In this document: piece after piece, positions 40,842 through 41,363 of the stretch
How the letters are laid out: each line of letters starts with the position of its first letter
Numbering within the stretch: position 1 is the first letter of the stretch
From: Myxococcota bacterium
Lineage (GTDB): Bacteria; Myxococcota; UBA727; JAHDBA01
NCBI GenBank assembly: GCA_020630615.1
Contig: JAHDBA010000003.1
Span: 10,027 to 74,026, forward strand
Reading direction: 5' to 3'
Length of the DNA: 64,000 nt
Notes under the pieces: model-generated
What the model was told of the DNA's origin: nothing
The model's database searches: none
The model's input: only the letters and a program-made list of their open reading frames with translations
Made by a program: the position numbers and the translations under genes

Positions 40842-41363
40842 TTAACGAACGTTTTGGATACTCGACTTTGCAGTGTCATGCTTGGTCTTCATCACGTTGG
40901 ACAGTGTTGTGAAACGTCTGTTCTCATCTTGCATGGTCTGTTGAAGCTCCAAGTACTGCAAATTAAAAGCTGCGCCCATTTCTTGTACTTTACTCATACG
41001 ATCAACCATATCTTGCTGACCATTGGGAAGCCCGCCACCACTGGCTTGCCCATTGATATAATCGGGCCCTGATGCACCAAAGCTCGCAGGATTACTCGCA
41101 CTAAATTGGGCGCCACCTTGGACTCCAACACTACGCCCTAAACCCTGTGCTGCGCCATTAACGGCCGCAGATATTACTGCAGAACCGGGTATCACCGGGG
41201 CTGCAACACTTAATCCAGCCGAGACTGCTTGACCTGCTCCCGAAATACCTCTACGAATGTGCGAAGAGAAGCTATTGTTAGCAGCCCGACGAACAGTCGT
41301 TGTCGATGTATTTAAGTTCATTGAAACTCCGCGGTTACCACCCAGCTGATTGACGTCTACCAT
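40842..41363 (-). CDS. Gly/Ala/Ser-rich, Cys-free protein whose C-terminal helix resembles T3SS needle (SctF) subunits
   Basis: At 173 aa, the N-terminal roughly 110 aa are low-complexity G/A/S. The C-terminus LSNVMKTKHDTAKSSIQNVR* compares with the PrgI/MxiH C-terminus QSNTVKV[FI]KD[IV]DAAIIQNFR*. A GGAGGA ribosome-binding site. Confidence 0.4.
   Translation of the reverse strand: MVDVNQLGGNRGVSMNLNTSTTTVRRAANNSFSSHIRRGISGAGQAVSAGLSVAAPVIPGSAVISAAVNGAAQGLGRSVGVQGGAQFSASNPASFGASGPDYINGQASGGGLPNGQQDMVDRMSKVQEMGAAFNLQYLELQQTMQDENRRFTTLSNVMKTKHDTAKSSIQNVR

Follow-up and report, generated by a model that had tools for sequence, protein, structure and literature searches.

Type III secretion systems (T3SSs) of the Myxo type have been described as devoid of the secretin, the needle protein SctF, the tip and the translocon, with the remark that SctF "should have been found" if present (Abby and Rocha 2012; PMC3459982). 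Reviews and a 2025 study of the Kil pilus describe the T3SS* of Myxococcus xanthus in the same way, without needle or translocon homologues and with several LcrH homologues (PMC10433427; PMC11509652; PMC12075869). Since 2012, myxobacterial T3SSs have been viewed as early-branching systems in which SctF was lost or never present, and current models of predation by M. xanthus build on a "needleless" T3SS*, with neither the substrates nor the export route known (PMC3459982; PMC10433427; PMC12075869). Here, we analyze a gene on the minus strand (40842..41363) of a 64,000-nucleotide stretch of the Myxococcota contig JAHDBA010000003.1 (hereafter the window), together with its relatives; FAM denotes both this open reading frame (ORF) and its family. 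Orthologues of FAM head the T3SS operon in Myxococcus, Anaeromyxobacter, and other Cystobacterineae, that is, in the systems described as lacking SctF, needle and translocon, and they are annotated there as hypothetical only. We found no description of the family in the literature, and the sole full-text match for Myxococcus together with SctF was the 2012 paper. As a conserved, unannotated family that occupies the sctF position, has a C-terminal helix like that of SctF, and is encoded next to a chaperone-like protein, FAM is a candidate for the missing filament protein. That it is a T3SS substrate of some form seems probable; that it is, more precisely, a divergent T3SS-exported subunit of axial or filament type, the functional counterpart of SctF or HrpA in Myxococcota-type T3SSs, is a tentative proposal whose chance we place a little short of even.

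C-Terminal Similarity to Needle Subunits

The preliminary description of this gene had singled out its C-terminal tail for a resemblance to the needle subunit PrgI. The reading frame and the tail are real (table 1), the PrgI sequence used for the comparison was correct (100% identical to PDB 2LPZ chain A), and right-aligning the two does give the reported 8 identities in 22 positions, as well as 8 in 20 and 10 in 36 (P ~2e-5 to 4e-5 from residue shuffles). Among the 33,542 20-mers in window ORFs of at least 60 aa, this tail is the only one with 8 identities to the PrgI tail; three others reach 7, so that the identity count alone is borderline as a blind scan. Profile comparisons extend the resemblance to needle proteins at large. 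With hhalign, the C-terminal domain of FAM gives P=0.007 against PrgI, P=0.003 against 7 SctF sequences, and P=0.002 (score 19.8) against 22 non-redundant SctF sequences collected by database search, and the alignment is identical in all three cases: 36 columns, gapless, with flush C-termini. None of 200 column-shuffled FAM profiles reaches 19.8 against SctF (10.0 ± 2.1, maximum 18.5), the reversed profile scores 7.4, and none of the comparisons of the FAM profile with 83 unrelated decoy families from the fetched loci attains that score (9.5 ± 1.6, maximum 14.4). The residues concerned are those conserved on both sides: Q141, S155, and D163, invariant or nearly so in the FAM family, align with Q48, S62, and D70, three of the six invariant residues in the SctF seed alignment, and the Q, S-N, K, D, and I-Q-N-x-R of FAM are spaced from the C-terminus exactly as in PrgI, MxiH, BsaL, YscF, and PscF (PF09392). 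SctI is accepted as being distantly related to SctF, and the SctI-like family encoded near FAM scores 13.7 against SctF (P=0.16), below the value for FAM; no similarity between FAM and this SctI-like family is found by hhalign. Judged from sequence profiles, the FAM-SctF similarity exceeds chance.

Gene Order around FAM

A scan of one genome per species gave 173 loci, of which 80 were fetched, and ORFs were clustered over 85 loci. The fetched loci belong to Myxococcota, cultured Anaeromyxobacter included, and to metagenome-assembled genomes (MAGs) labelled Bdellovibrionales or Deltaproteobacteria; other phyla are represented for the C-terminal domain alone. FAM is part of a conserved same-strand module, with a gene for a ~110-aa protein on its 5' side (37 loci by iterated profile search) and a gene for a ~140-aa tetratricopeptide repeat (TPR) protein 27-507 nt on its 3' side (~37 loci), followed by a gene for a ~128-aa protein (p129) or for an unrelated 157-aa protein. 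Farther downstream in related loci come a sigma factor of the FliA/WhiG type (4.7e-47), an SctI-like protein (NCBIfam SctI 0.0044; weak precomputed PF09392 match) and the T3SS core proteins SctJ (1.8e-40), SctQ (1.4e-17), SctR (7.6e-70), and SctS (2.4e-21). Within class 1, as we term the branch of the family linked to T3SS genes, to which the window protein belongs, core genes (sctI-like, sctJ, sctQ, or sctR) lie downstream on the same strand at 34 of the 48 loci for which 4 kb or more of downstream sequence is available, and the linkage to sctI and sctJ spans several Myxococcota lineages (Anaeromyxobacter, Myxococcus, unclassified MAGs). Thirteen other class-1 loci resemble the window locus in having no T3SS genes nearby.

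The order of these genes places FAM where sctF would be expected. In Yersinia, the ysc genes run yscE-F-G-H-I-J-K-L and yscN-O-P-Q. Locus L051 is colinear with both runs, FAM standing at position F: a small protein, FAM, the TPR protein, an unknown gene, sigma-28, the SctI-like protein, SctJ, and an unknown gene are followed by SctL (5.6e-31), SctN (4.6e-181), FliJ/SctO (1.2e-8), an unknown gene, and SctQ. FAM orthologues, all annotated as hypothetical, also occur in Myxococcus, Corallococcus, Stigmatella, Cystobacter, Hyalangium, and Pyxidicoccus. On a 9.2-Mb Myxococcus chromosome, FAM lies directly 5' of a gene for a 161-aa protein with a weak PF09392 match, after which come YscJ, a 124-aa protein, FliM/N, a FliO-like protein, FliP, FliQ, FliR, FlhB, and FHIPEP, an F-I-J order equal to that of prgI-prgJ-prgK. 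Since this orthologue (P0395) heads the Myxococcus T3SS operon, the candidate is directly testable in a tractable model organism. A canonical SctF is absent within 10 kb on either side of FAM at every locus (6,864 ORFs; best E=0.12). The SctI-like neighbour is itself unusual: at 161-168 aa, it is roughly double the size of known SctI proteins and has a Gln-rich N-terminal extension, and its weak precomputed match is to PF09392, the needle family, not to SctI (L090:10475-10960, L003:12586-13092).

The genes that flank FAM recall those of needle subunits. A TPR chaperone-like gene follows immediately, as yscG and cdsG follow yscF and cdsF, and the order of small helical protein, FAM, and TPR-like protein is that of the YscE-YscF-YscG, PscE-PscF-PscG, and CdsE-CdsF-CdsG triads. 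LcrH/SycD models score the TPR protein equally well or better, and no YscE model matches the upstream protein. The latter, in the yscE/cdsE position, has a single weak family match (CT668, 0.0059). The window TPR protein matches CdsG at 2.5e-5 (24.5 bits, cut-off 170), LcrH/SycD at 2.8e-5, SctY at 3.6e-4, and Pfam YscG at 0.099, all below the curated cut-offs; a representative orthologue reaches 4.8e-10 for LcrH/SycD and 3.6e-7 for CdsG, and the LcrH_SycD scores of these proteins run from 23.9 to 39.3 bits for a cut-off of 104.8. Against Pfam and the PDB, it is a generic TPR protein with three repeats, and others of this kind swamped its PDB profile search. From its sequence, it looks like a T3SS TPR chaperone that is assignable neither to the needle nor to the translocator class.

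The third neighbour, p129, stands in the yscH/yopR position (orthologues, e.g., L007:11056-11439, L012:11076-11453) and has no Pfam family match. Its C-terminal consensus, kGKG.k.MEe.V.eMVE.DP.FVsRLQSQLKRLAKS, aligns with SctF from the N-terminal helix through the DP turn into the beginning of the C-terminal helix (PrgI residues 15-54), with hhalign P values of 2.5e-4 to 2.9e-3. No shuffle in 200 reaches the real score (null 9.4 ± 1.8, maximum 15.1), and p129 ranks first of 83 families against the SctF profile (26.0 vs. a mean of 10.9 ± 3.2). It thus resembles the half of SctF that FAM does not, and, because two proteins of one four-gene module match complementary parts of SctF, chance is an unlikely explanation for both likenesses.

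A further feature is shared by FAM loci. The gene is followed, inside the apparent operon, by a GC-rich, intrinsic-terminator-like hairpin (table 1), and a canonical hairpin with a T-tract, no more than 80 nt from the stop codon, occurs after FAM in 23 of 33 related loci with the TPR gene downstream. By the same criterion, hairpins follow the TPR gene in 0/33 cases, the upstream gene in 0/31, p129 or its alternative in 2/31, sctJ in 0/29, and the sigma factor gene in 0/20. Hairpin sequences vary among loci, and the conservation is thus one of structure. Where the product of one operon gene is needed in excess, an internal terminator or attenuator behind that gene would be expected.

Architecture of the Protein

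Class-1 proteins share a common layout, from N- to C-terminus: a S/T/N-rich start, a conserved N-terminal block, a hypervariable linker, and a conserved C-terminal helix. Over residues 2-21 of 83 members, Ser accounts for 14.6%, Thr for 13.4%, Asn for 11.1%, and Asp plus Glu for 4.8%, and a signal peptide is absent from these N-termini; such a composition is typical of type III secretion (T3S) signals. The near-invariant motif [TS]-x-x-R-Q-[TS]-P-x-[NT]-[DE]-F-G-x-x-[LMFVI] lies 15-30 residues from the start (alignment positions 15-29). The N-terminal block has the family consensus R-Q-T-P-x-N-D-F-G-x-x-hydrophobic ... A-A-P-x-V-P-G-x-A-V-x-S-A-A-V and reads RRAANNSFSSHI ... AAPVIPGSAVISAAV in the window protein, where the motif copy RRAANNSFSSHI is divergent or degenerate, with F-x-x-x-I retained. 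An F-x-x-x-hydrophobic form is also that of the gate-recognition motif in early flagellar subunits, and the likeness of the FAM element (25-35 residues from the N-terminus) to it is noted as a lead. The flagellar motif is described in PMC8983047. The linker measures 40-80 aa with 24% Gly in class 1; in the window copy Gly makes up 26%, and the predicted local distance difference test (pLDDT) of AlphaFold2 falls below 50. The preliminary description had regarded the whole region before the helix as a low-complexity, harpin-like extension. Its composition bears this out, with no Cys in the protein and 46% Gly, Ala, and Ser over residues 1-114; yet the N-terminal part holds the conserved block (~24-75), only residues 76-114 form the Gly-rich linker, and harpin family models match neither the window protein nor 28 relatives.

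Composition and TPR neighbour can also be read in another way. FAM might be a T3SS-secreted protein of translocator or harpin type, kept export-competent by a class II (LcrH/SycD-type) TPR chaperone, whose hydrophobic Pro/Gly/Ala/Val segment and C-terminal helix act on the envelope of a target, such as prey. LcrH/SycD is indeed the best specific model for the TPR protein (4.8e-10 in the representative, 2.8e-5 in the window copy), and FAM is Gly-rich and Cys-free, as harpins are. The 19-residue Kyte-Doolittle hydropathy of the window protein peaks at 1.69 (residues 50-68), borderline for a membrane segment, and FAM resembles YopD, PopD, and IpaC, the partners of LcrH, PcrH, and IpgC, in having a TPR partner, one moderately hydrophobic segment, and a C-terminal amphipathic helix. 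The T3SS* of M. xanthus is needed for prey lysis and has several LcrH homologues and no recognized substrates (PMC10433427; PMC12075869). Nonetheless, FAM is much smaller than hydrophobic translocators, the hydrophobic segment is interrupted by P-x-x-P-G and is not predicted as helical, and the [PV]-x-L-x-x-P chaperone-binding motif was not found in a search by eye. No translocator or harpin family matches the window protein or the 28 relatives. Furthermore, lcrH precedes yopBD while yscG follows yscF, and the chaperone-like gene lies 3' of FAM, as in the latter pair. The conservation of the C-terminal helix across phyla (66-69% mean column identity) is also far above that usual for effectors and translocators. 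We regard a translocator-like or harpin-like role as unlikely.

The axial reading, to which we return, finds a second point of comparison in the Hrp pilins. In HrpA of Pseudomonas syringae, as in FAM, a variable Gly/Ser/Ala-rich part precedes a conserved C-terminal helix. The Hrp operon runs hrpA-hrpZ-hrpB-hrcJ, and FAM likewise lies upstream of sctI and sctJ homologues; the harpin HrpZ, with which FAM shares its composition, is encoded beside hrpA. The Hrp pilin model HrpA_pilin (PF09589) gives weak matches in 5 of 28 members (best E 0.0079; two reported scores of 13.5-14.4 bits, cut-off 25), which cover profile positions 3-87 of 96, as with P0036, whose residues 89-173 match positions 4-87. 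FAM differs from HrpA in that these matches stay below threshold and that the window protein itself has none. A conserved N-terminal block, a variable Gly-rich middle, and a conserved C-terminal helix make up a layout that recalls Hrp pilins and axial proteins of flagellin type more than it does an SctF extended by a tail.

The sigma factor gene that separates the module from sctI in 19-21 loci (e.g. L051:11465-12277, L017:11631-12530, L007:11508-12254) suggests a flagellum-style transcriptional hierarchy in these Myxococcota T3SS loci; no anti-sigma factor was identified. In a further reading, FAM would be a secreted regulator of FlgM type, largely disordered, in which the C-terminal helix binds the FliA/WhiG-type sigma factor until export of the protein through the T3SS releases it. 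Such a role would suit the position of the sigma factor gene, the prediction that FAM is mostly disordered outside the C-terminal helix, and the resemblance of its N-terminus to a T3S signal. It is highly improbable all the same, as no FlgM model matches the window protein or its relatives (Pfam, NCBIfam), neither the window module nor the Myxococcus and Anaeromyxobacter loci contain the sigma factor gene, members with signal peptides (see below) cannot act as anti-sigma factors, and a terminator-like hairpin allowing overexpression is unexpected for a regulator acting one to one.

Family Models and Predicted Structure

Tests of formal membership in the needle family came out negative. A search with profile hidden Markov models (HMMs) finds no PF09392 match, nor any other Pfam family, for the window protein even at E<=10, and precomputed PF09392 annotation is absent from all FAM homologues found, the orthologues of the Myxococcus group included. 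A helix-PxxP-helix hairpin had been anticipated in the last 60 residues; one continuous helix is predicted there instead, and the P-x-x-P of FAM (residues 56-59) lies in the hydrophobic block, parted from the helix by the 40-aa Gly-rich linker. The AlphaFold2 model of the window protein (alignment of 76 sequences) has an overall pLDDT of 56.8, with the helix at residues 115-172 (~70-89); apart from weak helices at 32-50 and 65-74, the rest is disordered. The model of the Myxococcus orthologue (149 sequences; pLDDT 62.7) has the helix at 90-151 (73-92) and a low-confidence helix at 24-43. FAM further departs from SctF in length (173 vs. 70-90 aa), in its longer C-terminal helix (~58 vs. ~36 aa), in its conserved hydrophobic Pro/Gly block and 40-80-aa Gly-rich linker, and in the presence of its domain in Sec-exported proteins. 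Pfam and NCBIfam scans of the protein and its relatives (28 and 76, respectively) yielded no T3SS structural family, and weak recurrent matches to Arg_decarb_HB, TrbL, and GldL were disregarded, since they fall on the helix or on low-complexity sequence. Having no HMM match and a single helix in place of a hairpin, FAM cannot be filed as a member of the SctF family and is best regarded as an axial or secreted component of the T3SS whose architecture is unusual, outside PF09392; it may still work like SctF. What has held of the earlier proposal is the link to the T3SS and to the needle C-terminal helix, which profile-profile statistics and, more strongly, the gene neighbourhood support; membership in the family has not.

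The Wider Domain Family

An initial homologue search recovered 76 relatives of FAM, all annotated as hypothetical and without a precomputed Pfam domain, whose last ~55 residues are strikingly conserved (consensus FNLQYLxLQQxMQxENRxFTTxSNVMKTKHDTAKxAIxNVR). An exhaustive profile search then gave 2,675 cluster representatives (50% identity) at E<=1e-3, and 1,367 at E<=1e-10; the domain extends to the last or second-to-last residue in 150 of 150 cases among the matches listed. No Pfam or NCBIfam model matches this domain family, which is defined here as a large one (~2,700 clusters) with T3SS-linked, Sec-exported, and other branches and which bears on the evolution of needle, pilus, and flagellar axial proteins. 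About 28% of the sampled members are of class 1, and ~29% carry a Sec signal peptide or a lipobox followed by a helical region; the remainder have neither motif and include proteins of 100-140 aa that resemble plain helix-loop-helix hairpins (e.g. P0185, P0077). These hairpin-type relatives compare less well with full-length SctF (hhalign P=0.024), the N-terminal helix being covered only with a permissive alignment setting. Signal-peptide forms were found in Acidobacteriota, Armatimonadota, Rokubacteria, Gemmatimonadota, Syntrophaceae, and Polyangiaceae. In Sec/lipobox members (P0056, P0069-P0075, P0078, P0090, P0094, P0118, P0124, and P0150, for example; loci L053, L055, L059, L062, L063, L065, L067, L076, L077, L080, and L083), the domain is 60-78% identical over ~50 aa and stands behind a helical "KSH" region. 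One 332-aa member with a bacterial-type signal peptide (L054:3095-4093) is on a contig binned as a Nitrososphaerota archaeon MAG, probably by a binning error.

Recognized T3SS neighbours are present at 0 of 12 signal-peptide loci, and the search for a conserved partner of this branch yielded only a lineage-specific 355-aa neighbour. Because these Sec-exported forms have neither conserved nor T3SS neighbours, the C-terminal domain is not exclusive to T3SSs; either it is a general self-assembling helix exploited by the T3SS-linked branch, or the Sec forms are offshoots of an axial-protein ancestor. The breadth of the family also raises the question of whether the domain is simply a self-associating coiled-coil of the cell envelope, next to T3SS genes by accident and similar to SctF by convergence of heptads and polar residues. 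The many clusters, the signal peptides and lipoboxes of some members and the plain helical hairpins of others would all fit, as would the shortness of the SctF similarity and the class-1 loci, the window's among them, that have no T3SS genes nearby. Class-1 members, on the other hand, have no signal peptide and therefore need another export route, and the linkage to sctI and sctJ recurs across Myxococcota lineages. The C-termini of FAM and SctF join exactly with SctF-invariant residues matched, and p129 independently resembles the other half of SctF. Incidental adjacency is, in our judgment, quite improbable.

A Possible Mode of Action

If FAM is an axial subunit, the S/T/N-rich N-terminus and the F-x-x-x-hydrophobic block would act as export and docking signals. 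In the cytoplasm, the TPR neighbour, perhaps with the small upstream protein, would hold the amphipathic C-terminal helix, as YscG/YscE or CdsG/CdsE do with the needle subunit, and the hairpin with its T-tract would permit an excess of FAM over its partners. After export, the helix would pack into a helical polymer, in which S155, N156, K159, H162, D163, N171, and R173 might line the channel or the subunit interfaces as in SctF, while the variable Gly-rich segment would be displayed outside. SctF itself is monomeric when its last 5 residues are removed. The window module is detached from the apparatus, and this reading requires the apparatus genes to be in another part of the genome. Taken further, the myxobacterial "needleless" T3SS would not be needleless: the FAM family, distantly related to SctF/HrpA and with a Gly-rich loop at its surface, would form its axial filament, perhaps together with p129, and Sec-exported relatives would form T3SS-independent envelope filaments or coiled-coil assemblies; this broader scenario is conceivable, although doubtful.

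Several findings weigh against FAM as an axial subunit. The similarity to SctF spans just ~36 residues, with hhalign probabilities of at most 13%. No SctF model matches the window protein or any relative even at E<=10 (28 scanned with Pfam, 76 with NCBIfam), and sequence searches of the PDB, with the single protein or the family profile, returned no needle protein and nothing meaningful. AlphaFold2 predicts no confident hairpin, the putative N-terminal helices having pLDDT values below 60. Foldseek found no PDB match for the model of the Myxococcus orthologue, so that fold comparison is uninformative. Translocator chaperones are a slightly better match for the TPR protein than needle chaperones are. 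In other phyla, the C-terminal domain of FAM follows Sec signal peptides or lipoboxes and has no recognized T3SS genes beside it, and profiles built from related loci detect no T3SS apparatus gene in the window. Finally, Myxo-type T3SSs are without a secretin, which leaves the route of a filament through the outer membrane in question (PMC3459982; PMC10433427).

The Module in the Window

The four-gene module is complete in the window, with all genes on the minus strand (table 1). Housekeeping genes surround it: those for TamB, CoaBC, MreB, and a BamB-like lipoprotein to one side, those for RpsD, an ExbB/TolQ-type protein, and TatC to the other.

Table 1. Position of FAM, Its Segments, and the Neighbouring Genes in the Window
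Feature	Position	Strand	Details and basis
FAM gene (ORF under study)	40842..41363	minus	ATG start; 173 aa (173 codons); tail ...LSNVMKTKHDTAKSSIQNVR*
Shine-Dalgarno sequence of FAM, GGAGG	41369..41373	minus	5 nt 5' of the ATG; direct sequence reading
FAM residues 24-75, conserved N-terminal block	41139..41294	minus	column counts, alignments
FAM residues 76-114, hypervariable Gly/Ser/Ala-rich linker	41022..41138	minus	composition, low pLDDT
FAM residues 115-173, conserved C-terminal domain, predicted single long helix	40845..41021	minus	AlphaFold2 and conservation
FAM residues 138-173, gapless match to SctF C-terminal helix (PrgI residues 45-80)	40845..40952	minus	hhalign
Intrinsic-terminator-like hairpin, GCCCAGG-AAG-CCTGGGC, and T-tract	40809..40834	minus	8 nt past the FAM stop, just before the TPR gene
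Upstream gene, small helical protein	41474..41752	minus	~92 aa from start MEEFKISDK; longest ORF to 41872
Downstream gene, TPR protein, T3SS-chaperone-like	40336..40815	minus	159 aa; NCBIfam/Pfam scores
Third module gene, p129	39878..40267	minus	129 aa; basic, disordered-looking N-terminus; tail ...VRELVEKDPNIVSELRHQLKRLAKK

The shorter start of the upstream gene is backed by the alignment of relatives. Its extended form is overlapped by a 235-aa ORF with a TTG start (41760-42467, minus strand), which matches no family, has no relative in the fetched loci, and is either spurious or lineage-specific. A Ser/Thr protein kinase is encoded ~3 kb upstream of the module in 12 related loci (L003:5498-8068; L017:6211-8064; L031:6094-7965), followed in L003 by a gene for a small FHA protein. 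The window also encodes a kinase (6136-7701, minus strand), 34 kb from the module, with E=1.5e-100 to the profile of this kinase cluster, a match that may reflect generic kinase-domain similarity.

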